From positions 124,001-154,342 of the forward strand of contig MU271205.1 in the NCBI GenBank assembly GCA_021432655.1: a DNA stretch of 30,342 nucleotides, given 5' to 3'. Origin of the DNA: Atractiella rhizophila. Taxonomy: Eukaryota. Under the pieces are notes generated by a model that was not told where the DNA came from, made no database searches, and saw nothing but the letters and a program-made list of their open reading frames with translations. The translations under genes were made by a program, and so were the position numbers. Each line of letters begins with the position of its first letter. Position 1 is the first letter of the stretch. Below, in pieces: positions 1-29,911 of the stretch.

Positions 1-124
1 TTTTCACGCGAAGGCAGATTCGATGTGAATTCTGCCATGCTTTGTTAGAACATACAAGCAAGAAGAGGAAGAGTCCAATAAAGATCGAAGCAATTGAAGC
101 TACGAGAAACATTGACCCCTATCA

Positions 125-620
125 TTACAAGCTTCCTCCGATCAGATCATCGAGCACACAGACGACGGTTGTGACTGGTTTGTCGTTCTCGATGTCCCAG
201 CACCGAGGAGGAGAGCTGGATGCAAAGCAGACAGCTCAGTGTTCCGCCGACGTAGGCGAAAAGATATGCTCACGCGCAATACTGGATCAGATCTGCAAGT
301 CTTTGATCAGCGGAGATCAAGTCCCGAAAGCTAAGGCACTGACCGTCGAGATATGTCCTCATGTCACCCGTACGATATTGTCTTATATTCCCGTCCCACG
401 TAACGTTAAAGGTGAATCCGCTCAAGCAGTTTTGGCAATATCTCGCTGCTGATATCGTATTGGAACTACATGCCCCAGCTGTTACACCGTTACAGTTCTG
501 TGAGCATTGGAGCGCCCCAGCGGTCCCCATCCCTGTATTGAATTGAGGCTGGGGAAGTGAAAGAGCAAAGTCGAAGAAGAAAGCACGAAGCAAGACTTTT
601 GTTACTCGCTTCGACAACAT
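125..620 (-). CDS. Small cysteine-rich, probably secreted protein (~128 aa, 8 Cys, 3 exons)
   Basis: Exons 620-344, 292-274 and 215-125, with GT-AG introns at 293-343 and 216-273. Spliced product MLSKRVTKVLLRAFFFDFALSLPQPQ...CSQNC...C...YCQNC...YLDDLIQYCASPPRCWDIENDKPVTTVVCVLDDLIGGSL*. The N-terminus is signal-peptide-like but imperfect (contains an Asp). Confidence 0.7.
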
Positions 621-1439
621 CGCTGTGGTATTCTACGACAGTGGCTCAAGTCGATAATTTCCGAAAGCAGTTACCGTCGAGTTTCTGATGAGCACTTGAG
701 TAGGGATACCGCGTACACCGATCTGGATTTTATTGATGAGGACATGTTCTCAGAACAGAACAAGACGGATTTCTCGACCGTTCTCGTCTTCATGATGGGG
801 AACGAAATTGAAAAGTATCAATTGCTGGTCCTCAGATTACAGTATGCTTACAGCCCAGGTCACCCCGACACAGCCATTACCCAGACGACCCAGATCACTC
901 GGAGTTCACTCCAGATCCAATTTTCGCCCGTGCTCCATTCTTCCAGCGCGGTTGCAATGATGTTAGACTGGATGGGGCTTTGCATGGAGCTCCATTTTGA
1001 CGGCCTACGAATCAGAGTCAATCACGTTAGAATATTGAAATGGAAACTAAAGCCAACAGCCTAAGCTCCTGAGGCCTGAGGCTTGATCAACAATTCAAAG
1101 CAATAAATAAAGCAAAGCCAATTGACCCTGAGTAGCATTGCCACAAGTCCATACTGTTATTACTTATTTCTATCACTTTCATCGTTTGATCTCCTGTTTT
1201 GACTTTCTAAACCTCTAAATCTGAAAGACCGCATGGCGTCAGTGCAAGATTATCACCTGGACTGAGTCGGATGATGCGAAGAATGCCCTAGAAAAGGAAA
1301 GAGAAGAAGTAAATGAAGTCTTCGACGTTTGTTTCGCCACAAGCACATGTTGGCGCCCCTGGACTTTGGTTTGACTTGATCTGTCTAGAACTTCAAGCAT
1401 TTACATAATCAACGGGTTTGCTCCCATCTTTTTGCTTCC

Positions 1440-1621
1440 ATGAAGGCTCCCAGTAGATACCGTCGTCGGAATCTTTAAGCTTGCCCGTCCCACTCCTCCA
1501 CACTGCTCAGCTTCTCAAACCCTCCATATTATGCGCCAGCCAGGCGACCACATAATTACCCTCGTCCTACAGATCCGAAAAGGCTCGAAACGATACCACC
1601 TCAAACACCAGCTCAAATATC
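1440..1621 (+). pseudogene. Degenerate 5' fragment of the F-box-like gene (array copy 0)
   Basis: Homologous to ~2258-2432 (ctcccagtagatacc...cttgcccgtcccactcctcc...aattaccctcgtcc...caaatatc). Frameshifted right after the ATG and truncated at ~1621. Confidence 0.85.
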
Positions 1622-2257
1622 GTTCAAAGGTTTGGGGAATGATGAGAAGTAAGGTCTAGAAACGGTTGTATTATAGAGAATTATACAGTGAAGAAACTTG
1701 ATTAGCTCACCAGGCGGCTAAGCTCAGATGCGCATGTTAACTCTTTAGAGGAGAAAATCACCGCAGTTACTCCAGGCCGTTCGCTGCTCAATGCCGTTGG
1801 TTGCTAGCTGCAGGGTTTTCCTTCTAATAATTCCAGGTTGGACATGAGAATTGGGCATTGTGAACAGCAACAATGTTGTTGACGTGCGGGTGTTCTACGT
1901 TCACACAATGCTTTGTCAAACATGAAGGCGACACAAATGACGGTTGCGCATGAAAGAATCTTAAGAATGCGGATGAAACAAAATGTTCGGTATCAAAATC
2001 CAAGATGCACTTCGCCCAACATTGAAAGCTTGATCACTTGATTACTTGATTGGGTAGTATCGGCTGGCCTTCAAAGAGCGAGGCTTTAGGGCAAGTATGA
2101 GCGTCCAACCTCCTTGTTCGCTGCGGGGCTGACACCATGTCTCAGGAGTTGTGATAAAGACCGAACTCACTTCTTCTTTGACTAGATTTGACTACAACTT
2201 CTTCTACCTTTTAAACGGTTTTACTTCCATCTGCACCGCACAAAGCGCTCAAGCAGG
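1622..2257 (+). repeat. Duplicated upstream/promoter region of the F-box gene (paralog at ~8107-8737)
   Basis: Collinear similarity from aatgatgagaagtaaggt to caaagcgctcaagcagga, with small indels. Confidence 0.9.
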
Positions 2258-3649
2258 ATGTCGCTCCCAGTAGATACCCTTGTCGAGATTTTCAAACTTG
2301 CCCGTCCCACTCCTCCTGACCTTTTCAGTTTCTCCAACCCGCCCATGCCCGTCAAGCGAGACCACAATTATCCTCGTCCGGCAGATTCCATAGGCTCGGA
2401 ACGATACCCCTACAAATACCAGATCAAATATCAACTATATCAGCGGGACCTCTTCCGCTTCGCCCAAGTGGCAAAGAATTGGAGGAGCGCGGTTTCGGAG
2501 GTATTGAGGAGTGGCTACCTGACTGCGAGGATCAAAAGCAAGAAGGGAGCGGAGGGTCTAATTGAAGTTTTGAGTGACAGCGAGAAGAAAATCCCGGGGT
2601 GGAAGTTTCAAAGACTCGTGTTTGATTACGATGCTTCCTTGAAAGGATCAAGAGGACAGAGCACATACATGCGCCAAACCTTCGGAGCGACTCGAACAGA
2701 AGCAGAGAAGTGGGGCCTACCTACGTGGAAGAATACTGTGGAACTTCTTCGTCTTCCGTCGTGCAACGAGAATCTTCAATTCCTCTCCTTCATCGATCCC
2801 TGGTTCAAGAGAGATTGGCAAAATGATGATTTTGTTCCATATCCCGAAGCGGCCATCAAGCCAGAAGGAACATTTCAGACCCTTCCACAAGAAATGTCAA
2901 CGATTCAAAATGGACTGCCCCTTGCTTTTCCAGTTTTGACCGAATTTGCCTTTCAAGAAGCATTCAACTTTCCCAAGCCCCTTCTCTTCTGCCTCCTCTC
3001 AAAGATGCCTCAGCTCAAGATTCTCGCTCTCGGCGATATATTTGATTCTTGGGATACTCAAGGAGGCTATCCTCCAGAACCGACCTACCAACTTCACACC
3101 CTCAAGATGACTGCTGGAAGTCACTACCAACGCATGTTGTTAGAAGACGATTATAGATTCATCTTGAAGTCCTCCGTTGGCGCCAATTCCATCCAAACCT
3201 TCTCCCTTGTAGCCGGTGGCTATGGTGAAGATGAGAAACCTCTTTTCCCTGACGATATGTACGCTCCCCTCGCGTCCAACCTCAGGAGCGCAACATTCAT
3301 CGACATGCCGACAAAAGCGAGCGCCATCATTTCCCGTGCTCCAAAGTTGAAGGAACTTGTCAGCGTCGATAAACATAACCGCAGTACCCTATTTGACCGA
3401 ATGAAAGCCTTCCCTGAGGATGCGTCAATCGAGAGGATTTGGGAACGTTATAATCAATTTAGGGATCAAGCAACGGTGTCCGAGCTCGCGAAGTGTCTGG
3501 AAATGGACAGCAAGGGCAGCTTCAAACATCTCAAGTTGATCAGAATTTCTGTGGAGCGATGGTACGACACGTCTTCGAAGGAACAGCTTCAACCTTTCGT
3601 GCAGGTATGCAAGAGGTTGGGTGTCCAGATAGAGTGGGACACTACATGA
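2258..3649 (+). CDS. Intronless F-box-like / LRR-like protein, 463 aa (array copy 1, intact)
   Basis: Uninterrupted ORF. Split F-box pattern LPVDTLVEIFKLA...DLFRFAQVAKNWRSAVSEVL, followed by LxxLxL-type segments (PVLTEFAF, PQLKILAL, QLHTLKM, NLRSATF, PKLKELV, KHLKLIRI). The domain call is from motif recognition only. Confidence 0.75.
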   Translation: MSLPVDTLVEIFKLARPTPPDLFSFSNPPMPVKRDHNYPRPADSIGSERYPYKYQIKYQLYQRDLFRFAQVAKNWRSAVSEVLRSGYLTARIKSKKGAEGLIEVLSDSEKKIPGWKFQRLVFDYDASLKGSRGQSTYMRQTFGATRTEAEKWGLPTWKNTVELLRLPSCNENLQFLSFIDPWFKRDWQNDDFVPYPEAAIKPEGTFQTLPQEMSTIQNGLPLAFPVLTEFAFQEAFNFPKPLLFCLLSKMPQLKILALGDIFDSWDTQGGYPPEPTYQLHTLKMTAGSHYQRMLLEDDYRFILKSSVGANSIQTFSLVAGGYGEDEKPLFPDDMYAPLASNLRSATFIDMPTKASAIISRAPKLKELVSVDKHNRSTLFDRMKAFPEDASIERIWERYNQFRDQATVSELAKCLEMDSKGSFKHLKLIRISVERWYDTSSKEQLQPFVQVCKRLGVQIEWDTT

Positions 3650-3998
3650 CGGACGTGGGTTGGCATTTCCACCATTGTGCCCAGTTGACTGTATCCTCCA
3701 GCATCCAATGTCTTCCTCACAAGAATTCACCCAAATCCTGTCAGAGCATTTTGTCGTTTGGTCTTCCTGTCTTTCCGATTGCCTTTTGAGAAGTGCACAT
3801 ATCAATGAACAAAATGAGACATGGATGTTTCGCATGATACCATCTGCTCCCAGCACCGATAACGGTAAACAAATGCGGAGAAGTATCGCAGCTTTTGAGA
3901 TATACCGACGTAACTACTTGAGCTTGCAGGAGAGGAGAAAGACAACATTGACCAAACAAAGACCTCAAACGCAAAATGAGGCAAGCTTCCACTAACGT

Positions 3999-5063
3999 AT
4001 CAAGCTGCGATTGTTTATTTACATAACCCACCGCTCTATGGACGCCCCCAATTATTACATTCCAGCCCATTATATTCCCAGGATTACTGAAATCGTCTAG
4101 GTCGTCCGGGTTGATGTAAATTTCAGCCTCTGTGGCAGGTATAGGCTGCAAAGTGGTGGCATCGATTGTTGGTAGGGGTGGAACGGACGATCCAGCAGGG
4201 GGATAGACACATACGCTTCAGTGACAGCGGTAGTGATGTCAAGTCCAGGGAAATTCCCTGCGGCGGCATAGCCTGTTCCCGCTAAAATGATGGAGCTAGC
4301 TGGCGAAACTTGATTGCCGTTGTGTGGAGGGTACATGGTCTGACCATTGATTGGCTAGTGACTTGTTCTGTCTGTTGGGGATGTGGTCGACCTGGTTGCC
4401 GAACTTGTGAGTTGCGGGCCAAATCGGAAGGAGAAGTCGGTTGAAATGGCTCCAGTGATGTTGCCAGCAGTCGGGGGGACAGCCGTGACCTCTACGTCGA
4501 ACTACCACCGTCGGAAAGGGTATGCGCATGAATGATGCGCCTGGGAAGCTCTGAGGTACCGTGGAGTCAGCTCTTTGACTGGCTGGCTCATGAGTTAGGA
4601 ATGGGTTGACATCGTCAAGAGATGGCACCGAATTTAACGCTGCGGTCGAGATCCTGAGAAAGGTCGGAACGTGACAATTTGGCGTCCGAAACCTCAGGAT
4701 CCTCTATTGCTGATAACAGTCCTTGCAACGTCTCAACTGAAAGTACGACGAACAAAGGAGCTCAATTCCCAATATCATGACACCGCTGGCGACCTTGTAA
4801 GCCAACCAGCCCACTTCTGCTTCGTGGCCAGCTCCGCGAGGTGGCGAGAATTATCTAAAGACCCGTTAATTGTGAATAGTAAAATGATACCGCGGTGCTA
4901 ACCCTCGAGTACTTGAGGCATCAGGACGTTGAATATGCGTATTCTGCATTGTGATACCCGAGGATAAGGTCAACACGATGGATTCGAATATATTCTTGAA
5001 CAAGACGGATCCAAAATCGTGCTTAAAGGACCGTCAGAAACAATCAATTTCACGGAAGACAGC
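3999..5063 (-). pseudogene. 3'-end fragment A of the Zn2Cys6/fungal-specific TF
   Basis: Homologous to 10955-~11708 and to the mirrored TF tail. Has frameshifts and a deletion equivalent to 11121-11300. Confidence 0.85.
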
Positions 5064-5708
5064 ATGCCTCAGCTCAAGATTCTCGCTCTCGGCGATATAT
5101 TTGATTCTTGGGATACTCAAGGAGGCTATCCTCCAGAACCGACCTACCAACTTCACACCCTCAAGATGACTGCTGGAAGTCACTACCAACGCATGTTGTT
5201 AGAAGACGATTATAGATTCATCTTGAAGTCCTCCGTTAGCGCCAATTCCATCCAAACCTTCTCCCTCGTAGCCGGTGGCTATGGTGAAGACGAGAAACCT
5301 CTTTTCCCTGACGATATGTACGCTCCCCTCGCGTCCAACCTCAGGAGCGCAACATTCATCGACATGCCGACAAAAAGAAGCGCCATCATTTCTCGTGCTC
5401 CAAAATTGAAGGAACTTGTCAGCGTCGATAAACATAACCGCAGTACCCTATTTGACCGAATGAAAGCCTTCCCTGCGGATGCGTCAATCGAGAGGATTTG
5501 GGAACGTTATAATCAATTTAGGGATCAAGCCACGGTGTCCGAGCTCGCGAAGTGTCTGGAAATGGACAGCAAGGGCAGCTTCAAACACCTCAAGTTGATC
5601 AGAATTTCTGTGGAGCGATGGTATGACACGTCTTCGAAGGAACAGCTTCAACCTTTCGTGGAGGCATGCAAGAGGTTGGGTGTCCAGGTAGAGTGGGACA
5701 CTACATGA
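5064..5708 (+). pseudogene. 5'-truncated F-box gene copy 2 (C-terminal 214 codons, open frame)
   Basis: About 15 nt differences from 3005-3649 by manual count. Lacks the promoter and F-box and begins at an internal Met codon. Confidence 0.85.
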
Positions 5709-6057
5709 CGGACGTGGGTTGGCATTTCCACCATTGTGCCCAGTTGACTGTATCCTCCAGCATCCAATGTCTTCCTCACAAGAATGCACCCAAATCCTGT
5801 CAGAGCATTTTGTTGTTTGGTCTTCCTGTCTTTCCGATTGCCTTTTGAGAAGTGCACATATCAATGAACAAAATGAGACATGGATGTTTCGCATGATACC
5901 ATCTGCTCCCAGCACCGATAACGGTAAGCAAATGCGGAGAAGTATCGCAGCTTTTGAGATATACCGACGTAACTGCTTGAGCTTGCAGGAGAGGAGAAAG
6001 ACAACATTGACCAAACAAAGACCTCAAACGCAAAATGAGGCAAGCTTCCACTAACGT

Positions 6058-7845
6058 ATCAAGCTGCGATTGCTTATTTACATAACCCACCGCTCTATGG
6101 ACGCCCCCAATTATTACATTCCAGCCCATTATATTCCCAGGATTAGTGAAATCGTCTAGGTCGTCCGGGTTGATGTAAATTTCAGCCTCTGTAGCAGGTA
6201 TAGGCTGCAAAGTGTGGCATCGATTGTTGGTAGGGGTGGAACGGACGATCCAGCAAGGGGATAGACACAGACGCTTCAGTATCAGCGGTAGTGATGTCAA
6301 GTCCAGGGAGATTCCCTGCGGCGGCATAGCCTGTTCCCGCTGAAATGATGGAGCTAGCTGGCGAAACTTGATTGCCGTTGGGTGGAGGGTACATGGTCTG
6401 ACCATTGATTGGCTGGTGACTTGTTCTGTCTGTTGGGGATGTGGTCGACCTGGTTGCCGAACTCGTGAGTTGCGGGCTAAATCGGAAGGAGAAGTCGGTT
6501 GAAATGGCTCCAGTGATGTTGGCAGCAGTCGGCGGGACAGCTCTGACCTCTACGTCGAACTGCCGCCGTCGGAAAGGGTATGCACGTGAATGATGCGCCA
6601 GGGTGGCTGTGAGGCACCGTGGAGTTAGCTCTTTGACTGGCTGGCTTATGAGTTAGGAATGAGTTGTCATCGTCGACAGATAGCACCGAATTTAACGCTT
6701 GCTCTAATGCCGATTTATGATGATTGGTCGATGTCCTGAGAATAGTTGGAACGTGACAATTTGGCGTCTGAAACCTCAGCATCCTCTATTGCTGATATCA
6801 GTCCTTGCAACATCTCAACTGAAAGTACTACGAACGAAGGAGCTCAATTCCCAACTGACAGCACCGCTGATGACCTTGTACGTCAACCCGCCCACTTCTG
6901 TTTCGTGGCCATCCTCAGGATGGTGAGAATTATCTAAAGACCCGTTAAATTGTGAATAGAATGATACGGCGGTACTAACCTTCGAGTACTTGAGGCATTG
7001 GGACGTCGAATATGCGCATTCTGCATTGTGATACCCGAGGATAAGGTCAGCACGATGGATTCGAATATATTCTTGAGCGAGACAGTCCAAAATCGTGCTT
7101 AAAGGACCGTCAGAAACAATCAATTTCAGGAAGACAGCACACTTTGTTCGCTGTCACATGATTAGAATGGGTGGAATAATATTCCAGTAGTCTTCTCTTC
7201 GAATTTTAACAGACAGAAAAAGAGGTAAGTTGTCGTTAATCTGCTCAGTGTTCGGCTATTGGACAGCACGAGGAGAGGAGCCGCACCGCCTGAATCTACA
7301 AATCGAGTTGAAAAACCTCCCTGTACGGTGAAACCTTCGATACCAACAGCGCGCTTAGACTGTGGCACTTGTTTATCAGCTTTATGTTAGGAGATAGAGA
7401 AGGCATACACTACTTTGAACGCGACTTGTGCTATCCGTCTTCGAATAAGCAAGGAGGTCATAACCGTCTCCCTCTTGCTGGTTTTCTTCACCGTCTGCTC
7501 AGCATCCTTGAACTCTTTCTTGCTAAAGTCTTCCTAATTCATGTGGTCAGACCGTTCTGTAATCGCAATGAGCTGAGAAACGTGGACTTGTTGGTAGTGG
7601 ACCCGAACTTACTGATATCGACGGCATCCTCATCGAAGTCCGACCACGCTCGTTCAAGAGAGCTGCAACATCGGCCATCGTGAGGATGGAACTTCCCCGC
7701 TGACGGCTTCTCGAGCGGCACAAAGGCAAAACTGTGTCGGAAGCGAAATGAGCTGATAGTTATTTGATCCCGATGAAAGCTCACTAGCGCTCACTGAGCA
7801 TTGATAATGATAAAGGCTCGGATGGCATCGAGCGTTGGCGTATCC
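6058..7845 (-). pseudogene. 3'-end fragment B of the Zn2Cys6/fungal-specific TF
   Basis: Homologous to 10955-12600. Has deletions equivalent to 11121-11300 and ~12262-12432 (the LGLNRDP...EDRRR exon region) and frameshifts, and lacks the 5' half. Confidence 0.85.
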
Positions 7846-8737
7846 GTGTTGAGCGTGTTTCTTTCTTGTCCCGGGAGAACACCAGAACGTGACTACACAA
7901 AACACAACTTTATTCATTCACACAGCTTGGAATGGAATGGGATGGAGAATGGGAACAACCCGACAGAGACGCAAGACAGTGGAAGGGCGTTAGATTTGGG
8001 GGAATCAGGTATTTGAAGTAACAGTACACCGCTAGAACGAGTCTCAAAGCCAGTGGTGAGGTAATTAGCTGCAAACGGTGAGCAGTTCCGCTTCATTTCC
8101 TCATTTGATCAAATGTTTGGGAAATGATGAGAAGTAAGGTCGAGAAACGGTTGTGTCGTAGAGAAGTATGCAGTAAAGAAACTTCATTAGAAGTTCACTA
8201 GGTTGGCCAAGCTCAGACGCATGTTAGCGCATGTTAACTCTTGAGAGGAGTCACCACACTTATTACAGGCCATTCGCTGTTCAATACAGTTGTTTGCTAG
8301 CTGCAGGGGTTCTCGTTCTAATAATCCAGGTTGGACATGAGAATTGGCATGGAACAGCAACATTGATGCTGTCGTGCACGTGTTCTACCTTCACAGAATG
8401 CTTTGTTAAATAATGTAGGCGACATAGATGATGGTTGCGCAATGGCATCTTAATCTCAAGAACGCAGATGAAACGAAATGTTTGATATCAAATTCCAAGA
8501 TGCACTTTGTCCAGCATTGAAACCTAGATTACGTGATTAGTTAGTATCGGCTGGGCTTCAAAAAGCGAGGCTTTAGGGCATGTATGAGCGTCTAACCAGT
8601 TCGCTGCGGGGCTCTCAGGAGTTGTGATAAAGACCGAACTCACTTCTTCTTTGACTTGATCTGACTACAACCTCCTCCAGCTTTTAAACGGTTAAACTTC
8701 CGTCTGCCACCGCACAAAGCGCTCAAGCAGGAGCAGG

Positions 8738-9330
8738 ATGTCGCTCCCAGTGGATACCCTTGTCGAAATTTTCAAACTTGCCCGTCCCACTCCTCCTGAC
8801 CTTTTCAGTTTCTCCAACCCGCCCAATTCTACGCCAGTCGAGCAACATCGCAGTTATCCTCGTCCAGCAGATTCCACAGGCTCGGAACGATACCCCTACA
8901 AATACCAAATCAAATATCAACTATATCAGCGGGACCTCTTCCGCTTTGCTCAAGTGGCCAAGAATTGGAGAAACGCAGTCTCGGAAGTGTTGAGGACCGG
9001 CTACCTGACTGCGAGGATCAAAAGCAAGAAGGGAGCAGAGACTCTGATTGAGGTTCTGAGCGACAGCGAGAAGAAAATCCTGGGGTGGAAGTTTCAAAGA
9101 CTGGTGTTCGACTATGATGCTTCCTTGAAAGGCTGCTCAAGAGGACAGAGCACGTACGGGTACGAAACTTTCGGAGCGACTCGAACAGAAGCGGAGAAGT
9201 GGGGCTTACCTACGTGGAAGAATACTGTGGAACTTCTTCGTCTTCCGGCGTGCAACGAGAATCTTCAATTCCTCTCCTTCGTCGATCCCTGGTTCCGGGA
9301 ATATGATGATTTTGTTCCGTATCCTGAAGC
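8738..9330 (+). CDS. F-box-like gene copy 3, 5' part; the 3' part is present mirror-reversed at 10760->9958
   Basis: Paralog of the ORF at 2258 up to PYPEA. Reading 10760 backwards without complementing continues in frame as PIKPEGKFHLLPQEMSTIQNGLPLAFPVL...IEWDILQ*. About 464 aa, allowing for one extra C at 10083-10084. Confidence 0.85.
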
Positions 9331-10760
9331 GTGGTGACTCCCTAGAAACAAGCGGGGCTATAGTAGTGACGACCTCGGAGGAAACATAGGTTGGCACGGT
9401 TGTTGTCTACGGTTGTGAAAGGTCGGATATGGATGGGGTCTACGATTGTAAATGGATTCGGGCCTAGAAACCTTCTTGAACCTGCTAAAATGACTAGGAC
9501 CCTTATACTGCCGTCTGACCTTACGTTACAAACTCCCGTACTTATCTCTCTACCCAATACATTTACTTAGCGTCTGAACTATTGATGCTGTAACTTCGAA
9601 CGAAGCAAAACCACAAAACTCCAGAAACAACACTAATTACAAGAGAAAGAGGAAAAAGAACTTCGAGTTCACCAATGCAGCCGTACAGAGTTTTCGACAC
9701 TATGGAGAGGAGTTAGCAAAAGTCAACAGCCACGACACTCGTCTAACATAGTATACCTTGTACGTTCAGAGTAAGACAGGTGAAAGCAGGTGATTATGGT
9801 TAGTGAAGCAATGGTGCGTTCTTCTGGGCCGCTGTTCTTTAAGCCTTGGGTTTCCGCGATCAATCTTTTAACCTACTGAAAAACACTCCTTGTGTAACCT
9901 ACGACCGGCTATGTCAGTTGCGTCGTCTTATCACCTTTACCTTGTGTGGAAGTAACGAGTAACGTTATATAGGGTGAGATAGAGCTATCGGCTAGAGACC
10001 GTGTGGAGGTGTTTTCCAACTTCGACAAGGAAGCGTAGGCAGAGTCTGCTAACGTGGTGTCTTTAAGACTAGTTGAACTCCACCGAATTTCGATGGGAGC
10101 GATAGGTAAAGCTCTGCGAAGCGCTCGACCCTGTGGCAAGGAACTAGGGATATAAGTAACATAGCCAGGGTTTAGTAGAGTTAGCTGCGTAGGGGTCCTT
10201 TCCGCAAGTAAGCCAGTTTATTCCATCACACCGATACTAATAGCTGCGACTGTTCAAGGAAGTTGAAACCTCGTACCCCTTACTACCGCAAACGGAAGCA
10301 GCTGTACAGCTACTTGTAACGCCAGGACTCCAACCTCCGCTCCCCTCGTATGTGTAGTAGTCCCTTTTCTCCAAAGAGCAGACGTGGTATCGGCACTCGA
10401 TGCTCCATCTTTCAAACCTAGCTTAATCGCGCTTCCCTCCTCAAGTTCTACTTAGATATTAGCAGAAGATTATTGTGCGCAGCCATCACTGAAGGTCGCC
10501 AGTAGAACTCCCATACTTCAACCATCCATCCAAGGCCTCCTATAGGAGGAACTCATAGGGTTCTTCGTTTACATAGCGGTTCTCGCTCTTAGAACTCAAC
10601 TCCGTAGAAACTCTCCTCCGTCTTCTCTTCCCCGAACCCTTTCAACTTACGGAGAACCTTCCGTTTAAGCCAGTTTTGACCTTTCCGTTCCCCGTCAGGT
10701 AAAACTTATCAGCTGTAAAGAACGCCTTCATTTACTTTAAAAGGAAGACCGAACTAACCG
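9331..10760. other. 1430-bp mirror-reversed (non-complemented) segment; probable assembly artefact
   Basis: The plain reverse (gccaatcaagccagaaggaa...) aligns collinearly with ~2851-4266. I recognised no homology to the array in the forward or reverse-complement reading. Confidence 0.95.
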
Positions 10761-10954
10761 NNNNNNNNNNNNNNNNNNNNNNNNNNNNNNNNNNNNNNNN
10801 NNNNNNNNNNNNNNNNNNNNNNNNNNNNNNNNNNNNNNNNNNNNNNNNNNNNNNNNNNNNNNNNNNNNNNNNNNNNNNNNNNNNNNNNNNNNNNNNNNNN
10901 NNNNNNNNNNNNNNNNNNNNNNNNNNNNNNNNNNNNNNNNNNNNNNNNNNNNNN
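10761..10954. other. Assembly gap (194 N)
   Basis: Run of N. It falls inside the last coding exon of the TF. Confidence 1.
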
Positions 10955-13900
10955 GTGTGAATGGAGGGGTCGTGATGCGCGAGGCTGGCTCTGAGGTACC
11001 GCGGAGTCAGCTCTTTGACTGGCTGGCTTATGAGTGAGGAATGGATTGTCATCTTCAGCAGATGGCACCGAATTTAATGCTTGCTCTAATGCCGATTTGG
11101 GATGATTGGTTGACGTCCTGGACTTTTTGACGATGGTGGAGCAGCTGAGTTTCGTCGAGTGTTATCCTTTTCTTCAAGGAACTGCAACACCTTCGATCCC
11201 CTGCGGCCAAGACTCTGGATTGAATGTCAGCAGGGATTTGGCAGATGGGAAAGAGCCGAACCGAGACATCTGCGAAGAACTCCAACTGCTGCTTGGCCAG
11301 AGAAAGGTTAGAACGTAACAATTTGGCGTCGGGAGCCTCAGGATTCTCTATGGCTGACATCAGTCCACCGAAAGTCTCCACTTTGAGTGGGACGAACGAA
11401 GTAGCTCAATTCCCAAAATGATGGCGCCGCTGATGACCTTGTAAGTCAGCCCGCCCCACTTCTGCTTCATGGCCGGCATCCTCGAAATGGCGAGGATTAT
11501 CTGAAGCCGATTAATTTATGGATTGTAATAGATACAGTGGTACTAACCTTCGAGTACTTCAGGCATTGGGACCTGGAATATGCGTATTCCGCATTGTGGT
11601 AGCCGAGGATAAGATAAGGACGATGAATTCGAATGTATTCTTGAGCCAGACCAATCCAAATCATGCTGCAAGTACAGTCAGAAACAGTTGTCAATTTCAG
11701 GAAAGACAACGTAAACGTACTATGTTCGCATTTCAGACGCTGTCACATGATCGGATGGTGGAATAATATTCCAGTAGTCTTCCCTGTCGAATTTCAACAG
11801 ATAGAAAGGAGGCAGGTTGTCCTCGATCTGGTCAATGTTATCAGCCTTTTCGCCTCCCGACAGTAGGAGAAGCCGAACCTCCCGAATTTGCGAATCCAGC
11901 TGAAAGATTTCGCTATAGGTGACACCTTTGATACCAAAAGCCCGCTTAGACTGTGGAGTTGAGTTAGTTAGTTTTCATTAGGAAATAGAGAAGAGAAGTA
12001 CTATTTTGACGGCAACTTGGGCTATCCGTATGCGAATAAGCAAAGAGGTCATAACGGTCTCCTTCTTGCTAGTTTTCTTCACCGTCTGCTCCGCATCTTT
12101 GAACTCTTTCTTGCTAAAATCTTCGTCGTTCATGTCGTCGGGAAGTTCTACAGTCACAATGAGCTCTGGACATTGTAACTTTTGAAAGTGAAAGCGAACT
12201 TACTGACATCGATGGCTTCCATATCAAAATTTGACCATGTCCTGCCAAGAGAGCTACAACAAGTGAATCAACAAGACTAAACGAAGGCAACAAAGTTACT
12301 AACCTGGAGCTTAAGGTGAGGAGATGGAATAGTGTCCAAAAGATACGTCGACGATCCTCAGCTTCAAGATAGGTGAATTTTTTATCCATGCGATCCGGAT
12401 CTCGGTTGAGGCCAAGCTGGACTGCAAGTTGGACGGCCATCGTGAGGATGGAAATTCCCCCGTTGACGGATTCTCCAGTGGCCATAAAGACGAAACTGCG
12501 TAAGCATCCAAATGAGCCGATAGTTATTTGATCAAAGATGGAGGTTCACTAAGCATTGATAATGATAAGAGCTCGAATGGCATCGAGCGTTGGCGTGTCC
12601 AAAAATTTTCCCGCCGTCAGAGCAATCATCGCACCTTCCAACCACGTATTCGCTAGCTTGTCCTTATCAACGGGAAAACCGTCGCGCCTGGCCCGGGAGG
12701 AAGGCATCATGGCCAAACCGACACCACACTGAGGATATCATGATTACTATGGGTCCTCGGAAATAGATGTGGCACGCACCAATGAAAGATACACGGCCAA
12801 GAAAAAAGGGTCCACTGCGTCCGGATTCTTCTCCGCCGTCTCTCTCAGGCGTTGCATTTGGAAGTGAAAGGTGGGAGTGTGGCATGCATGCAGATACCTG
12901 CTGTGGAATTAGCTCGTAGACGCGCAGATAGAATGAACGAACCAGTCGACATAAGAAAAATAGTAACTGAGCGCGCTGTTGGCCTGCTCCAATAATGGCA
13001 TGCATTTGAGGGCATCCTTCACGGTGGCAGTCTCCGAAGCGTAAGATAATCTTGCCAGACTGCTGGCCGCTGTATCCGCACCTGGCGCAGGTTGGTTTGA
13101 TCCAGAACTGGGTATAGTCGTCGAGAGTCCATACGCTTGCGGAAGAGCAGCACAAAAGGTCCTGGCCTCATCGAAGATCTGGGTTTCCTTCAACTTCTCC
13201 CCTGTCGGCTCATCGATCCGCATAATCTGCGAAATGGCCAAATGACTGAGCGCCTCGCAGAGGTCATTCGCTTTCAAATCCACCTCTTCCTGTTGAGATG
13301 CGTTTGACAAAGCCCTGTTATCATCCAGAACGCGTTGTTGTGCTTCCGGCAAATTGAGGTTGCCGCCATTGTTTGGGTTCGCGAGGACGTCAACGAGCGC
13401 TTGAAGCCGATCTACTTGGGCGCGTAGCTCGGCCATATCATTCATATCTCTAGCAAGGTATCTGTGGTCAAGGAATTAGAAAAACCATCAGAACGTGAAG
13501 ATGGCTGAGGATTACACACAGAGGCACGGCATTTTCCCAGCTGCACAGGTGAGCCTCTCCTCGCTGTTGACACGCCGAACAAGGAACCTGATCGCACAAT
13601 ACGCCGTTCAACAATGGAGAACCCTGAGGCAGAAGGACGCACCAATCGATCGCACCTTAATTTCTTCTTTCTGCCTGAAGAAAATTTAGTCAGGAGAATG
13701 ACATTGAAAGCTACCTACAAGGGGCACCTGTACCAAGGCCAGTCAGTCAGTATTCATGCGATCAGAGGTATTAGTAAGAGTATCCGAATTCGGCTGCCTG
13801 TTCAGATGAGAGTTTGGATACCGGTAATACCTCCGGCAGCAGAGGAATCGCCCGTTTTCAATAGTCAAAGTGCGCACTAAGGGCCAGCACGCTGAGATGA

Positions 13901-14548
13901 TTGCGACACCAGCCTTTAGGTGCGAACTTTGTCGTTGCTAATATATCCGCATTCAGATCCTTGCTTGTCATTCATGCACAGCTCGGATTCGTATCGCTCA
14001 TCTCATTCCAGCAGCCATTTGAAGATGTGCCACTGTGGTCATCTCGCGGCTGGATCCGAAAGTAATATCAAAGAACGAAAACTGCTACTAATATGCCAAG
14101 CAGCAGAAGAGTGAAACAGCTTCCGAGTGGTGCGCAACTCAGGCTCAGGAGTGAACGGTTTCACAATATGCAACTCCCAGTTGAACACCAGATCAAGAAG
14201 AAACTCACAACTAGCCGGTTTCCTGTTCCTCGTCTTCTTTTTCGCAGGCGGAGTATCCTCCTTCATATCCCTCCGCATTCCTTGATTTCCAGTTTGGTTC
14301 ATATCGAGTCCTCCAATAACGGGCATATTAGTATCGAAGATCCTCTGTGTGTTGCCTTGAGAGCCAGTGGATGTTTCTGCTGGAACCTGCCGAAGAGAAA
14401 CTGGGTATGGGGCAAAGATTGGATTGTTGGAAAGCGACCACTGGGGTTGTGGTGGATTCACATTTGTTTGGAGAGGGGCGGGGAGTGCCGAGGTTTGATG
14501 GTCCCCTGGATCATAAAGCATGGTAGGATTATATGCCGACGACGCCAT
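10955..14548 (-). CDS. Zn(II)2Cys6 (Gal4-type) transcription factor with fungal-specific TF domain; multi-exon, 3' end in the gap and mirrored segment
   Basis: ATG at 14548. Exons 14548-14209, 13727-13719, 13674-13643, 13587-13520 and 13461-... splice to RNRKPASCAPCRKKKLRCDRLVPCSACQQRGEAHLCSW. Followed by a coiled coil (ELRAQVDRLQALV) and the middle-homology motif AVQLGLNRDP...EAEDRRRIFWTL. Apparent 1-nt frameshift at the T-run 11124-11128. Confidence 0.9.
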
Positions 14549-15758
14549 TGAGTGTCGACTTGGTGTCCAGAGCGTACAACCCACGTAGAACCGAGTCGAG
14601 TTGAATGCTACAGACAAGGTCAGATTGGTAACGCCGGACGATGCTCAGCAATCAGAAGCACGAGACGCTTGTCGAGATCTTACAATTCACCTTCCAGCGA
14701 CTTATCCGGCCAATGTTATTCCTTATCCGAGCTGCGTAGAAGCGGCCAGAATGGTCGAAGGAGGAGATGTTCGTCGTTGAAATTGATCGAAGTCACGTGT
14801 CTCAGACACCCACGAATTTATTTGACGCTGCGCCACCATCTGGAGGCTCATCTGGGTTCGCCAACTAGATATGAAGATCATATCCTGCCTTCTGGAACGC
14901 CCATTTTCTTGCAGAGGCTCGAAGCTGAGATGCCCATCGAATTTGCGAGGTATTCCGTGGATTCCAGACTGTCAACCCGAGAAAAGGTCGAGTTCCAGGT
15001 CGAGTTCAAGCGAGATGTGCGAGAGAACATTTGGAATCCGAAATGGCTGGCATATAAAAGTCTACGAACAGCCGAACTTCGCCCTCGATCTCATGCCGAC
15101 TGGTGTTTCGTATCCCCAGATCGATGAGAAAGCCATACGGAACTCCGGTCACCAATAGAAGTTAAAAGAACCTCAAACTTCCAAGTGAGGCCCTCTCCTC
15201 ACGATTTTACTGCGAACTTGCAAGAGAGTGGGCGAACGGTCAGGGTAACTGTTTGATGATCGGTGCAGAACGACGGCGACTCGAAGGAGTCTAAATCTGG
15301 AGGATTTTCTCGATTTTCCTGCTTGAACTTCAACGTCAAAGTTTTCCATCGGGACATCTGATTTTGAGCATGACATGGAGCTGCATTTGAATATGAGATG
15401 AAAGCCCGTCGACCCCTGTCTTTATTGTCTCTTACGTGCTTCTGGTCTTTTAGTGTAGGGTATTGTCACAAAGCCGACCAAGGTGTCGAGATGAGATCGG
15501 ACGGGACAGGGGTATGAGAAACGCAGGGGATCACAGTTAAAGCCATGGAGGCTTGAAAGTTCTGGGGATCCTTGCTAGGCCATTGTTTCCACTGATTTTG
15601 CGACGGCGACAGGTTTTCACATTCTCTAACTGACGAGGACATAAATACAAGACATTGCAATGCAGAGCTTAAAACCAATACACATGATCAGTAGCACAAG
15701 TACCATAGGCAATAAATTGAGCTTTACACGCAAGAAGCAAACTTGAAGTGAGCTCACT

Positions 15759-17626
15759 TTAGACATCCATACCACGAATTAAGTGGTTCCACTCCTCCTG
15801 TACATCTCCCCGTCCATATCCTTCACGACGACGTTGGTTTTCCAACCACCCGTCCCGTGTCGCATAAAGTTCATCTTCCCTGGAGGGGTTACTGGGCGGT
15901 CCAGCCACCATAGGCTGCACGATAACCTTCGAAGGAGTTGGTACATTAGGTTCCTTTGTTGTCCACCGGCAAGTCGTACTGCTCCGAGCGCAAGGACGGC
16001 AAATGAGGCAATTTGGTGTACATTCTATGTTCAAGCGACTGTTGCGACATTGTTAGTAATGTTAGTTTAATTACCAGAAGAAAAAGATACCACGTACCGA
16101 CAACGGTCACACTTGTCTTCTGCCTCTTGCAGTAACTTTGCTTGTGCCGGTCCATCAATAGCATTGTCCATAGAGACAGTCGAATAACGGTTGAACATTT
16201 CTTTTGTAGTCGTTTTGCAGAGGGCACCATCGTTGGCACAAGAAAGGCACTCGTGTCCGCCTCTAGGATTGTTCATGCAGGGTCTGTTTAAACGGCTATC
16301 CAGTTCCCTACCTCAGGAAAGTGACTCGAGGGATGAGCAGAGATACGAACCGACAACGGTCGCAGACCTCTCTGATCCCTCCATCGCTCAGATCTGCCTC
16401 AAACGACTCGTTCGTTCCGTCGCGGAGTTGCTGAACCGAATGAGTCTCCGATATAGGGCTAGGTGGTGCCTTCGATGCCCATTGGCATACAGCACCCTCA
16501 CGTGCGCAACGCAGACAAGTCCCCCCACTCGATGAATTGGCGATGCATTCCCGGTTCAAACGCCTGGCTCAGTCAGTCCACAAGTTATACTTGTAATCAA
16601 GAGGAAGAACAAACCGACAACGGTTACAGCCTTCTCCTGCTGCCTCTTTCGCCCGCAAGTTGACTCGCGTTAGCCCTTGGGTTTCGTCCTCAGTAGTTGG
16701 CCGTACGTGAGAGAATGCATTTGAGGCCATTCCTTTGGAAGGCCACTTGCAGATGGCAGAGTCGATGCCGCAAGAGACACAAGTTGTGCTCCAATAATAG
16801 CGCATGCACGATCGATTCAAGCGACTGTGGATCCCAGATGCTCAGGGAATGAAAAAACGGGAGGAAGAACGAACCGACAACGAGAACAGACCTCTCTCGT
16901 ATCCTTTTCGTGCACCTCGAGCGACACCGGTCCCTCAGACTTAGTTTCAAACGAGATTCTTGATGTATTAGCTGCATTCGTTGCCGTTTCTATCCATGCC
17001 CACCTGCAATTGACGCGATCGTTGGAACAAGAAACACAACTGTTGTGCCATGGAGTGCGCATGCAAGATCGATTTAAACGACTACCCAATGAAAGATCTC
17101 TATAAGTTATCCTTTCTATCTTTATAGAAGGAGAAGGAATACGAACCGACATCGAACACAAGTCTCTATCATCCAGCCCTTCTGCGCCACCGTTTCTGTC
17201 GATGGCCACTTGCAACTTTCGCCGGCTCTGGAACATCGCATGCAGGCTCCTTCACCATCCTTACTAAATTTGAACCTTCGGCAATTTTTGTTCAAACGAC
17301 TGTGGTCACCCGTCAGTATCAAAAGGGCAAGAAAAAGGCTGAACGAACCGACATCGATCACATTTCGTGCTATGAGAATCAGGCAAACGCGCGCGTCTGT
17401 GTAACTCTGTCAAAATGGTATTATTCTGATCGAAGGGAGGAACAAACGGCTCCTTGCAGACTGCCTGTCGGTCTGAACCGAGTTGCTTGGATTCTTGCAT
17501 GTTGCGGTTATTTGTGAGTGGAGCCTGAGAGAAACGCTGTCGTTTGCCCAGGACTGACGGAATTCCAGCCATAAACATCAGGGCTGAGGCAGCAGCACTC
17601 TCCAGTACTGAAACATGATCAGTCAT
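15759..17626 (-). CDS. Protein with six tandem Zn(II)2Cys6 clusters (~512 aa, 7 exons)
   Basis: Exons 17626-17349, 17299-17147, 17081-16875, 16824-16615, 16563-16351, 16295-16098 and 16038-15759 total 1539 nt in one open frame. Six C-x2-C-x6-C-x6/12-C-x2-C-x6-C units. All six introns are GT-AG, 49-65 nt and phase 2. The start codon choice is less certain. Confidence 0.88.
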
Positions 17627-18705
17627 CCACAGTCCTGCCAGGAAGAACAATTGCCTAGCGATTCTGGATTATCCCCGGTCGAATCATGCTCTGGCTCCGT
17701 CACATATCTATTGTAAAAATAAGTGCGACGTCAATAACACCAAACCACTTACATCTCTTGATTTGAATGGCTCTACGAGTTAAATTAGGAGCCTTCAATT
17801 CTGAAGTAGTACAACATACCATAGGTATGGTTGGCAGGAAAGGTATAGTTAGGGTTTTGTTTATCCTGCATCCAGAAATCAACACGCTGTAAATACGTGC
17901 ATGCGGAGGAACGAACGCATTCATGACAGCGAGACTGTCCAATCTCCAGCAATGTCCACTGTAGCTACCTAATCCTCCTGGTTCAACAGGCACAGATTCG
18001 CAGCTTATTGCTTTATCACTCACGCTGTGACTTAAGCTGGGAGCTAGATTGTGCCGTCACATCCCCTATTCCTGCATATAGTGAAAGGAACTGGCTCACA
18101 AGAGGACGTCACAGCATTCCTCATAACAGTACCAACTGCTTGTTTTTGACCGGGATTTGCGCTGATATTTCCACTTCAATTGCCTCTTGCCCCCGTCATA
18201 CAGGTGAATGAAGGACTTCTGGAAAGGGAACCTCCTTAAGTGCTGGTCCTGGATGGTCGTTCGATTTGAACAAGGGAACAACAAAAACAAAGTTTACAGC
18301 TTTCAATAGAACCAAAATAAGGGATTCTATGGGAAGATCCGCCGCCCATCTTGCCGCAAGAGCCCAAAACCTTGCTTATTACAGCTCATCGTTTATATTT
18401 ACTATTTGCTACAATAGTGAAAAAGGAGAGACAAACATACTTGCCGGAGCTTTTTCAAGAAAACAAAAGTTGTGACCCAAATTGTGGTGAGATCGCAAAT
18501 GCTGCGGAAGTACAGCAAACAACCAAAGGCGGATCCGAGGACAAGGTAGAATTGTTTAGGCAAAGTATCAGAGGACTTCATTAGCTAGTACTAATGAGTG
18601 GTAAAATTACATATTGAGTATCAATATGACAGCAATGACAAGTGCGTACAAAACATGAACTGAGTGGCAATAGTGAGTTCCAATCCACCGTTCTCTTCTG
18701 ATCGA

Positions 18706-21430
18706 TCATTCTTCTTCCATGATATCCAACTTTTCTTGAACTCGTGTTGGATCAGCATGCTTCACGGGTTCGGCTTCATGCAGCTCTGCAATCTCGATAT
18801 CGTCTTTTGCGGCGTTCAGCTTGAAATGGACCGCATCCCCATTTCTTATGGTTCCTTTCAAAAGTGCCATAGCAAGCGGTTGCCGAATCTGTTCACATAC
18901 ATCAATTTACGCCTCAGTTCACGATGTAAGGGGAGCAGAAGAAGGGAACAAACCTTTCTACCCACAAGTCGATTTAAAGCTCTTGCTCCGTACACAACAT
19001 CGTACCCCTTATCCGCCAGCCACATCTTCACATCCTCCCCACAAACCAGCGTCATATGCCTCTCTTCCAAGCTCTTCTGCACATCTGACAATCTCAGGTC
19101 AACAATGTCCAGGATTGCCTGCTTCGACAATTTATTGAAGACTATCTGGTCGTCAAGCCTGTTGAGAAGCTCTGGTGGATAACTCGCAGCGACGAAATCG
19201 AGGACTGCTTGCTTTGAAGCAGGTGAGACGCTCCCATCTGCATTAGTGGAGCTGGCGGACTTGAGGATGTCAGAGCCGAGGTTGGAGGTAAGGATGATAA
19301 TTGTGTTTTTGAAGTCGATCTTCCGACCCTGTGAATCTTGGAGTAGCCCTTCGTCGAGAATTTGTAGGAGAATGTTCGCTACGTCCTATGTGAGCATTCT
19401 GGCATTGAGAAACATCCAAAAAACCAAGAAATAAGGAAAGAAGGGCGTACTTTATGTGCCTTCTCGAACTCATCAAACAACACTACGCTATATGGTCTTC
19501 TCCTTACTTGCTCAGTAAGCTGACCTGATTCCTCATATCCCACATATCCCGGTGCGGCACCAATGAGTCTGGACACATTGAACCGCTCTCCATATTCGGA
19601 CATGTTGATGGTTATGAGAGCCTTCTCGTCATCAAAAAGGAACTGTGCAAGTCTTTTCGCAAGCTCCGTCTTTCCCACGCCCGTCGGTCCAAGAAAGAGT
19701 AAACTCGCCAAAGGTCTGCGCGAGGACTGAAGACCCGTGCGAGACATTCTTATCGCATCCGAAACTACTTTTACTGCTTCATCTTGCCCGACAACTGAAG
19801 AACCCAGCACCCGCTCCATGTCCAGCAATCGATCCCTCTCCCCTCGAAAGAGATTCGTGACTGGAACACCAGTCTGTTTGCTAACGACTCTCGCGACGTC
19901 CTTTGGCATAACCCTATCGCTGAGCATGAGGACCCCATCCTTCTCTCCCTTCAGCACCTCGTCCACATCTTCTTCCTCCCCTTCTGCAACGTCCTCCGGC
20001 AATTGCTTCTCCAACCCCGGAATCACTCCGTATCTCAACTCTGAAGCACGGAGGAAGTTACCCTGCCGTTCCATCTCCTCCAGCTCAAACTTGGCCTTCT
20101 CCAGCTCCTTTCTCTTCGCTCTTACGTGCTCTACTCTCTTTCTCTCCTCCTGCCACCTCCTTTCTACGTCCCCTTTTCGCAGCTCCAGATCTTCGATTTC
20201 TTCTTTCAGTTTCTCCTTCCTGGCAACGGAGAAACTATCTGTGTCCTTCTGTAAGGAAGTCAACTCAATCTGTTTCTCAAGAAGGCTACGCGTGAGGGAT
20301 TGAAGAATAGGAGGAGGAGACTCCAGAGCTATACGAAGAGAGGAGGCGGCCTCATCGATCAGATCTATGGCCTTGTCTGGCAAATATCGATCTGTGATAT
20401 ATCGGTGTGAATACGCAGCTGCAGAGACGAGGGCTGAATCGGAGATGGACACGCCATGGTGTTGCTCGTATTTAGTTTTCAAGCCTCGGAGCATGGTGAT
20501 CGTTTCTGCACGCTCGCTGTATTAGCCAAGGCGAATGAGTAGGATAGAAGAAAAGATGAACCTGCTACACCTGGTTCCTGTATTTGGATAGCTTGAAATC
20601 TTCTCGCCAATGCTACATCCTTCTCTATTGTTTTCCGATACTCATCCAAACTAAACAGACCTAACTCAACCTCCAAATCAACTGCGAGTTCGAGAATACT
20701 CACGTAGTCGCACCGGCCAGCTGCAAACCTCTAGCGAGAGCAGGCTTCAACAGATTCCCACCGTCGAGACTACCTTCCGCTTTGCCCAAGTTCAAGAGTG
20801 TATGAAGTTCATCAATGAAGATGATCACCTTCCCCAGCTCGTCTTGTATGTCATTTAGAAGCGCTTTAAAGCGTTCTTCGAACGATCCACGGACGCCGGT
20901 GCCTGAGATGAGGGAGGCGAGGTCCAAAGAGAGTACCCGCTTATCTTGCAGCGAAACTGGAACTTCTCGACGCAGTATTCGTTGTGCTAATCCCTCGATG
21001 ATAGCCGTCTTTCCAACGCCAGCGGGGCCAATGAGGACTGTCCAACACAAAAGAATTAACACTCTGTCTTCAAGGGAATGGCATGGTTAAGTAGCATCAC
21101 TCTGAATCAAACATTCGTTCAAGCCGTTCAAGTTTCAGGCATGAGAGATAAAGTTATGCTGTTTGGACTGGGGAAACTTTCAGGTGTCTCTGCACCTCGT
21201 GCTGTCACAGTCCACAGTCATCGATGACGAAAGAGAAAAAATGCAATGGTAATTGCGCATCCCTTCTCTTGAGCGTGAGCGTTCTAATCTTGGTAGCGAG
21301 GAAGTTCATACGCTCGATGCTGCTTAGGATTGCGAGAACTGAACGCACCTGGATTATTTTTCGTCCGCCGACTCAAAACTTGTAGAAACCTCAAGATTTC
21401 TTCTCTTGAGCCGAGAACCTTCTTGCTGAG
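18706..21430 (-). CDS. HSP78: ClpB/Hsp104-family AAA+ disaggregase, Hsp78-like; start unresolved
   Basis: NBD1 motifs [26 protein letters not shown] and ALARRF; coiled-coil middle domain; NBD2 motifs [23 protein letters not shown] and [11 protein letters not shown]; stop at 18706-18708. No Clp N-domain is visible, hence the Hsp78-like call. Confidence 0.85.
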
Positions 21431-21501
21431 AGATCGAACGTGAACGACCAACGACGAAACCAGGAACAGTCGTCTATTCTACTCAAGCAGCAGCAGAAAA
21501 C

Positions 21502-23797
21502 ATGCCCCGACTGGCGCACAACACCACTTCACGCGTCCGCACAGCTCCCTACACTCTTCCCTCCCACGGCGACTCTTACACACCACCTCCCACCAAAACT
21601 TCGCAACGCCAGCTGCACTCCCGCCTGGGGAGCAGCTCAAAACGACCTATAGACCTCTGCGATCTGCCCACTATCCATTATTCGGCTTCTGCACCTGATT
21701 TGAGCTCACTCGGTGGCTTTGGAGGCTTCGGGAGTGCTGTGGAGAAACCAGCTCCTAAGAGAGGGAGAAAGAGCGTAGGCGCTACAAGCTCTGCTCCAGC
21801 AGGAAAAGAAGGGACGGAGAAGAGGTTGGCGAGGGTTAAGAAAGCCTGTCCGAAAGTCATACTGGATCGGGTGGTGCGCGCTTCCTCTTGGTCCATCTGA
21901 AGGAGAGAGTTGGTTCTGTTCGGGATGGAGAGATATATTATTGTTTCATTCAGTTTGCTTGATATGTGTTCACGGAGATGGTTCGTTTCTTCGCTAGCTG
22001 AGAAGGCACAAATGTGCTTTTGTTATGTGTTCTCTCATATGAGAGTCACTTTCCTTGTTCTCTCTCACAAAGGTTTCAACTGGAGTTTGTGTTAGATCGG
22101 CTCATCGCGGCTGAGAAACCTGACAGTAGCTCATACTCTAGCGCATCAATCGTTAGCAGGTCGTTCTGAGAAGAAAATAATCGAATCTTTACTGAGAGAC
22201 GTTGTTGCGTTACTCGACCAATCCACCACTTGTGCGAATATTTTACCAGCTTCCAATTCAGTGTTGATTCATTACATAGTCTCACGGATTAGACTAGCTA
22301 GCTACATCTGAGAGTGATGTGACTACCGGAGAACGTAGAGCAGAACATCCATTGCTTCTCCCTTTTAGACACATGACAAATCTAGAGCTACAATATATGA
22401 TATCGAATCCAACCGATCTCAGACATTAACTTTTCGGTATGACGTGATGTTGTCAATAATCTATCCGATTTCCTCAATTCTCGTTAGCAGGAATAATGGG
22501 GTTTTGGCGTAGCGTGGCAGTAAACTTGTCAGTAGCCACTGTACCTAGCCCTCGCAACAAATCAGCGCAAGATCCGAAAGAATTTTGTTTTCTTTTGACG
22601 CCAAGGCAAGGGCAATGACTTTAAAGACACGGAGAACCTGCTACCTCTTCAGCTCACCCACTTCTAGCACAAAATAATGTCCTCTGTGGTTTCTCGTTGC
22701 GTTGTTCACGCTATCTAGTTTGTCTCAGTTGGAAGACAAGCTGGACGTGTTTCTGAGTCAAGTTTCATTTGCCCTTCTTAACACTCGACAACCATAGCGT
22801 CTCGTCCCCCAACCTTCCCGTTTGAATACTTCTTTCTAGAGACCAAGCCACATGCTCTGATCACCGCTGATGCTTTCCTAGGAGCGAGTTTACAGCCAAC
22901 GATTCTTCATGGTCGATAGGCATCGAAATGGAGATGACTTGAAAGAGGAAGTCAGTCGTCTTCCTCTCCAACATCGTGTGCAAATGGTGACAAAATTACG
23001 AGGGCAGTTCAAAGTGCTGGGATCTACGGGCAATGTCTACACCGTGACGATAACCCACGTTCCGACTTGCACTTGCCCTGACGCTCAAAAGGGTAATCAT
23101 TGCAAGCACATACTCTTCGTCTTCCTCAAAGTCCTAGGCGTGAAAGCGTCCTCGAATTTATATTATCAAAAGTTTGTCTTTTCTTTCATCTTTCAAGGGC
23201 CTCGACTGACTTGAGAAATTGTTAGAGCACTGCTAACGAGCGAATTGGTGGATATTTTCGCGAATGCAAAACCAAATCCGACAGCCTTAGCAAACAGCAC
23301 AATTATGGATGCCTACACTGCCGCTAAGGCAGGGGCTTCGACTTCGACCGGGGTTCAGAAACGCCTTCCTGGAGCAGGGGAGGGGGAAGAGGATTGTCCT
23401 ATCTGTTATGAAGAAATGAAGTCGAATGATTCAACCCTCGTTTTCTGCGAGACGGGCTGTGGAAAACCCCTTCATAAGGAATGCTTCGGACAATGGTCTG
23501 TTGTGCTCCTCTGAGATGCTTGTTTGTTGACTTGTTGGCGATTGCCATAGGGCAAAGACTTGCGGAGGAAAGCCCACCTGTCCTAGTTGTCGCGCGACCT
23601 GGGGACCTGCACCCAAGGCTGGTACTGTCAATCACGAAGGATATCTGAACTTCGGCGGCGTTGGCGGGATTGCGAGAGAGAGGGACACTTCAACTTATTA
23701 TCATGGTGTCATGCGAAGAGGATACGAGAGGGGATATGAGAGGAGAACGGAGTTGGATCCCAACTTTGGCCGACATGATTCTGATCGTTATTGCTGA
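21502..23797 (+). CDS. SWIM zinc finger + RING finger protein (putative E3 ligase)
   Basis: Exons 21502-21873, 22882-22950, 23008-23171, 23226-23495 and 23551-23797. SWIM motif CTCPDAQKGNHCKH. RING-type motif CPIC...CETGCGKPLHKECFGQW...CPSC. Confidence 0.88.
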
Positions 23798-24007
23798 ATT
23801 ATAAAGGAACTTCCTGGCCGACATTCATTTGTAATGCCTTGCTTTAGTGTCGTCCCTCTAGCATCCGATGTGAATCATTGTTTTGTAGCTAGTTAAGCCG
23901 GTCTCATCATTACTTAGGTGCCTATTAACTTTTAAATTAGGTGTATGTAGAATGAGGGGTGAATGAAATGGATATGAGTATCTATATTTTGTCCCTGAAT
24001 GTCACGC

Positions 24008-29875: not shown

Positions 29876-29911
29876 TTTTCAAAAGCTTTAATACTGTAAG
29901 ATAGAGGCACA

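Follow-up and report, generated by a model that had tools for sequence, protein, structure and literature searches.

Orientation errors are a familiar fault of databases and assemblies, where a segment is usually written as its reverse complement and can still be aligned to its relatives. The locus described here, in a window of 30,342 nt (the whole stretch of DNA analysed), resembles these errors in its evidently informatic character, in its position at a contig end and gap edge within a repeat array, and in the break that it makes in a gene model; it differs from them in that a block of 1,430 nt is reversed only, which makes it invisible to BLAST on both strands. Excerpts from the literature returned by phrase searches held no account of plain reversal as an assembly artefact; in these excerpts plain reversal figured mainly as a deliberate synthetic control, and the papers on mirror repeats dealt with non-B DNA. 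The reversed-not-complemented controls of synthetic regulatory genomics, as described there, involve the same operation on the letters as that seen here, but they are designed constructs, whereas the block stands in a genome assembly record.

The other described relatives are natural mirror repeats of the H-DNA (triplex) type, homopurine-homopyrimidine tracts that share with the block a letter symmetry without complementation. Such tracts are short, of low complexity and symmetric about their own centre, whereas the block comprises 1.43 kb of complex, gene-bearing sequence that mirrors paralogs located 3–6 kb away. Considered as a repeat of this type, the block showed neither mirror symmetry about its own centre nor purine skew (GC 0.43–0.50, skews near zero), and the assignment was rejected. 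One small natural mirror repeat does occur elsewhere in the window, a purine-rich GAA/GGA run at 29197–29263, which probably codes for an acidic, Lys/Glu-rich stretch.

Orientation and extent of the block

The block occupies positions 9331–10760, and its right end touches a run of 194 N (10761–10954), the sole one in the window, so that the seam at 10760 adjoins an assembly gap. When the block was compared by blastn (both strands, E≤1e-3) with the window in which the block itself had been masked, the deposited order gave no match on either strand. Reversed without complementing, the same letters matched 2855–4198 (80.36% identity over 1,395 nt, 1,251 bits) and 5064–6255 (78.46% over 1,244 nt, 1,003 bits). 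In a control, the entire 30,342-nt window was plain-reversed and compared with itself; beyond the two pairs involving the block, the single match was that of the purine-rich run at 29197–29263 to itself (68 nt, 76%), and the mirror match of the block is far above chance.

Searches at the protein level agreed with this. Relatives of copy 1, the intact paralog at 2258–3649 on the + strand, numbered only three in a large protein collection (P0002, 85%; P0003, 76%; P0004, 55%), all of them Atractiella rhizophila hypothetical proteins on other contigs. All three matched the mirrored block in tblastn (E 1e-129, 6e-108 and 1e-80), P0002 at 79.5% over 224 aa, while the best E value for the same proteins against the six frames of the deposited block was 0.17, and three shuffles gave a best value of 0.30. 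A first-pass annotation had described 9331–10760 as mirror-image DNA, reversed but not complemented, and both blastn and tblastn confirmed the description; to judge from these alignments, similarity of the block to its relatives appears only in plain-reversed order. The mirrored matches and the likelihood scan described below indicate that the true sequence is that read from 10760 to 9331 on the + strand, with breakpoints that can each shift by 1 nt, since G stands at both 9331 and 10760.

The orientation of the block could also be read from composition, with no homologue involved. TA and AT, CA and AC and other such pairs are unequal in real sequence because DNA is symmetric only under reverse complementation, and reversal exchanges every k-mer with its mirror. 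Markov models of order 1–3, trained only on 12701–30342 (outside the repeat array), were used to score 476-nt tiles as log-odds of deposited versus mirrored order. Cross-validated null tiles (37) had a mean log-odds of +8.5 to +9.4 (sd 4.1–5.2), with 37 of 37 positive at orders 1 and 2 and 97% at order 3. Tiles to the left of the block (19) and the two to the right of the gap (10955–11906) were likewise all positive, whereas the three tiles within the block scored -11.3 to -19.8. The maximum-scoring mirror-like segment of the whole window was 9327–10760 (score 83.9), which recovers the block to within 4 nt without any paralog; the runner-up was 11912–12086 (score 11.4).

Dinucleotide ratios are likewise inverted in the block relative to both reference regions, 1–9330 and 12701 to the end: TA/AT was 1.81 in the block versus 0.62–0.63 in those regions, CA/AC 0.72 versus 1.24–1.27, GA/AG 0.82 versus 1.14–1.15, and CG/GC 1.13 versus 0.91–0.94, and the inverses of the block ratios are normal values. 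A single normal tile, 11907–12382, lay near zero (-0.2 to -2.8), which marks the noise floor of the test; this tile and the runner-up segment were considered as mirrored candidates and rejected, as they align in ordinary orientation to copy 2 and to spliced contigs.

The tandem array and its genes

Ordinary self-comparison showed that the window contains a tandem array of diverged units. Matches in ordinary orientation were found between 1624–2851 and 8109–9331 (84%), between 3005–5064 and 5064–7139 (94%), between 6732–7670 and 11294–12261 (77%), and between 4533–4641 and 6591–6738 and the sequence from 10973 onward. Units of approximately 3.4 kb make up the stretch 1624–12600, each pairing a lineage-specific gene on the + strand with a convergent Fungal_trans gene on the - strand; copy 2 is incomplete, and its start at 5064 is the exact start of the 94% duplicate of 3005–5064.

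Unit 3 tracks units 1 and 2 normally as far as 9331 and resumes normal orientation to the right of the gap; between these points, collinearity with them requires the block to be read in the order 10760 to 9331. Under this mirrored pairing, 2855–4198 corresponds to 10756→9368, and the same number of bases (four) separates GAAGC from ATCAAG in both copies, GGCC in copy 1 and GCCA in the mirrored copy 3. Global alignment of the block with 2851–4229 of copy 1 (+ strand) gave 1,357 aligned positions, 85.3% of them identical, and the partial copy 2 was collinear over 5064–6291 (+ strand) with mirrored positions ~155–1430 according to blastn, self-comparison and global alignment together. The mirrored end at 9331 lay opposite 4229 in copy 1 and 6291 in copy 2, so the collinearity with copy 1 proposed earlier (~2851–4266) holds from 2851 but has its right limit at 4229. 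These alignments show the block to be flipped exactly in place, and turning it back restores both collinearity and reading frame to the base.

The gene interrupted at the junction begins at ATG 8738. In deposited order its ORF comprises 199 aa and stops at 9335–9337; once the block is mirrored where it stands, the ORF extends to 436 aa, compared with 463 aa for copy 1. The junction 9330/9331 splits codon 198 between its second and third bases, so that the intact 5' part of copy 3 (8738–9330, + strand) holds codons 1–197 plus two bases, and the remainder of the 436-aa frame, from codon 198 to the stop, is mirrored in 10043–10760 and read right to left. Amino acid identity of copy 3 to copy 1 was 90.2% before the junction (175 of 194 aligned) and 80.3% after it (238 aligned), and the longest open stretch of the block in any frame was 238 aa mirrored against 102 aa as deposited. 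In-frame completion of the ORF with ~267 missing codons had been claimed; the frame is indeed open across the junction, but the mirrored part adds 238 codons before a stop, and the shortfall has a visible cause. A 1-nt insertion relative to copy 1 near 10086 (mirrored position ~675) shifts the restored frame, which is why the restored ORF reaches 436 aa instead of about 463–466; past the insertion the final 47 aa of the relatives lie in a different frame, as a second tblastn segment. This insertion may be a genuine change that makes a pseudogene or a variant C-terminus, or it may stem from a base-calling error where a contig ends.

It is also the single indel relative to copy 1 across the ~790 nt aligned with coding sequence, whereas more than 30 indels occur in the ~640 nt past the copy 1 stop (3649). 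Such a distribution is the pattern that would be given by a gene followed by non-coding DNA, and 9331–10042 is accordingly annotated as a mirrored non-coding tail, comprising putative 3' UTR and intergenic sequence between the convergent genes. The codons after the junction differ from those of copy 1 at 38 synonymous and 47 amino-acid-changing sites. Together with the indels, which are mostly non-coding, these differences bear out the earlier view that the block represents a distinct paralog and not a copy of copy 1; the paralog it carries is a genuine one.

The + strand gene is an ordinary member of a small family specific to the lineage. It had been introduced as an F-box ORF that breaks after 9330; the break stands, but the F-box label is tentative, since the Pfam F-box profiles (PF00646 / PF12937) yielded F-box-like matches in two of five family members that were below the gathering score (17.8–19.3 bits, cutoff 24.3) and spanned profile positions 18–36 of 47. 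A search of the PDB with the family profile returned no relatives at E≤1. Copy 3 itself was found in the public protein record: a search with its ORF as deposited returned one protein, of 199 aa, 100% identical over 100% of the query and assigned to the 164,516-nt contig of the window itself. It ends ...PYPEAW and thus reads through 9330|9331 into mirrored letters. Because this record crosses the junction, the error must already have been in the public record when the truncated protein entry was made. The intact 463-aa ORF of copy 1 had no self-match from the window's own record, its best match being at 85%; with the copy 3 stub recorded and copy 1 not, gene calling on the contig looks incomplete or differently modelled.

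On the other side of the gap lies the 3' half of the convergent fungal transcription-factor gene (10955–12255, - strand) in normal orientation. Spliced joints in contigs from two public sequencing runs (X3 and X4, see below) defined seven GT..AG introns of 47–56 nt, and Fungal_trans (PF04082) was matched on 12117–12545 (-) with a score of 30 bits (cutoff 23, E 3.6e-7). The - strand pieces tested showed no N-terminal zinc-cluster domain, and Pfam gave no match on eight further minus-strand pieces from 11058–14644. The frame of this gene, which includes the ORF 11086–11226, ends ...PIIPNRH with a stop at 11086–11088, to the right of the gap, and the corresponding point of copy 2 reads ...PIIINRH-stop. 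A tail of the transcription-factor gene had been assigned to the block, and the position of these stops contradicts that assignment: from this gene the block can contain no more than 3' UTR or intergenic DNA. Of two genes said to be hidden from annotation, damage is demonstrated for only one, whose truncated 199-aa product is on record. A minus-strand ORF at 5800–6405 (201 aa) was considered as a candidate tail and rejected, as it had no Pfam match and lies downstream of the conserved stop; in copy 1 a 1-nt insertion shifts its frame, and in copy 3 it is broken.

The gap itself appears to be mis-sized. As 9331 lies opposite 4229 and 6291, and 10973 lies opposite 4533 in copy 1 and 6591 in copy 2, the paralogs predict about 281–285 missing bases, where the record has 194 N at 10761–10954.

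Contigs of public sequencing runs

Four public runs containing part of 1000–10760 were examined as Logan contigs over 7800–12300. Two of them, X1 and X2, derive from the same sample of organism A (share of words 0.61 and 0.59), X3 from organism B (0.08) and X4 from organism C (0.41); these shares played no part in judging the presence of the block. Across nine bins spanning 9461–10819, all four runs had a mean word depth of 0, with the flanks covered, and as the data are contigs only this hole was not counted as evidence. What the contigs do reveal is how the flanks continue, and those fitting either flank run on into letters unlike the deposited block.

At the left edge, an X4 contig fits as far as 9330 and then carries 32 further letters. 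Over 30 letters of this extension, by our own reading, 24 match the far end of the block in mirrored form and 28 match 2851–2880 of copy 1, which is the closer of the two; a core 16-mer occurs in forward order only at 2855 and as its letter-mirror at 10741–10756. The contig is a family member under another organism label, and it shows how the family continues rather than this locus. Contigs of X4 only also skip 603–641 nt within 8066–8708, immediately 5' of the ORF start, in one case with 37 different letters in between; this could be due to a 5' intron or to that organism being structurally different here.

Contigs fitting from 10955 rightward extend leftward in all four runs (X1, 337 nt; X2, 654 nt; X3, 620 nt; X4, 201 nt); those of X1 and X2 fit the right flank with 1 mismatch and 2 gaps. 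Given the 194-nt gap, the extensions of X1, X2 and X3 are long enough to reach the block, and none of the leftward extensions was placed on it as deposited. Contigs that enter the gap are predicted to fit the mirrored block, their letters being known to 30 nt. The X1 and X2 contigs, entering from the right by 337 and 654 nt, could close the gap.

Origin of the mirrored block

The block is almost certainly a data-handling artefact of the deposited assembly and not DNA of the organism. The first-pass annotation had suggested an in-silico error beside the N gap, and the mirror-only match, the exactness of the flip and the inverted dinucleotide asymmetry all support it. As to the step responsible, the geometry of the locus suggests a partial gap-fill or contig-end extension with a bug that complements without reversing, the exact join at 9330 together with the other end on the N run making an extension or partial fill the likeliest event. 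The tandem repeats would have broken the assembly, so that the contig of unit 3 originally ended near 9330 with a gap after it. The true continuation E (1,430 nt) would then have been recovered and joined base-exactly to 9330, but written as reverse(E): a piece kept as its reverse complement, if complemented and not reversed, becomes complement(revcomp(E)) = reverse(E). The rest of the gap would have been left as 194 N.

Another informatic route would give a similar product. A separate 1,430-nt contig may have been placed between the left contig and the gap with its orientation flip half executed, by a scaffolder or at submission, either through complementing only or through reversing only a piece already in the right orientation. 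The contig end on one side of the block and the gap on the other fit this, and a half-executed flip would presumably yield a plain reversal. Against it stands the join 9330|10760, which is base-exact and keeps the frame, and which compared with copy 1 shows no N, no overlap and no lost base; independently assembled contigs rarely abut in this way, whereas an extension grown from the contig end does. A separately placed contig is therefore held to be the lesser alternative to extension, improbable though still carrying appreciable weight. A reversal introduced only after deposition is very unlikely: nothing speaks for it directly, the nearest parallel being the synthetic controls of regulatory genomics, for which excerpts of that literature describe plain reversals in use, and the protein record for the contig of the window already includes the 199-aa product that crosses the junction (...PYPEAW).

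Readings that place the reversal in physical DNA are less probable still. A chromosome with a real mirror-order segment of 1.43 kb is what the deposited record, taken alone, describes, and the run data consist of contigs and not of raw reads; yet it is extremely improbable. Templated nucleic-acid synthesis is antiparallel and gives direct or reverse-complement copies, never a plain reversal, and to our knowledge no rearrangement yields one; a segment in mirror order would call for an unfamiliar process of parallel-strand copying, to which we attach the same minute probability. Nor could a coding signature, collinearity with paralogs and normal dinucleotide asymmetry be maintained in mirror order; read-derived contigs depart from the deposited sequence at both edges, and natural mirror repeats, in the excerpts of that literature and in the example at 29197–29263, are short, low-complexity tracts. 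An inversion of biological origin, or a chimeric read inverted by strand switching in library preparation or amplification, might be looked for in a tandem array, where rearrangements and chimeras are common. Either predicts a reverse complement, and none was found by blastn on both strands or by six-frame tblastn, which refutes this explanation and leaves it virtually no probability.

The biological import of the block is nil: it is an error of record, and what gives it interest is database hygiene together with the simple composition test that detects it. In the record the gene is called as a 199-aa stub instead of a protein of about 436–466 aa, about 240–270 codons being hidden, and because a plain reversal escapes any two-strand aligner the block passes as unique, non-coding orphan DNA; the error would mislead studies of repeats, orphan sequences or gene loss at this locus. 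The log-odds of forward versus mirror k-mers, which need no homologue, could be used to scan whole assemblies for further cases. A systematic bug of complementing without reversing, with more BLAST-invisible blocks at the gap edges of this and other assemblies, is a tentative suggestion that we consider possible but rather doubtful, though far more probable than true mirror-order DNA. Towards the right end of the window, a direct repeat of 644 nt (28139–28781 and 29701–30342) is 97% identical between its copies, the second of which leaves the window end.
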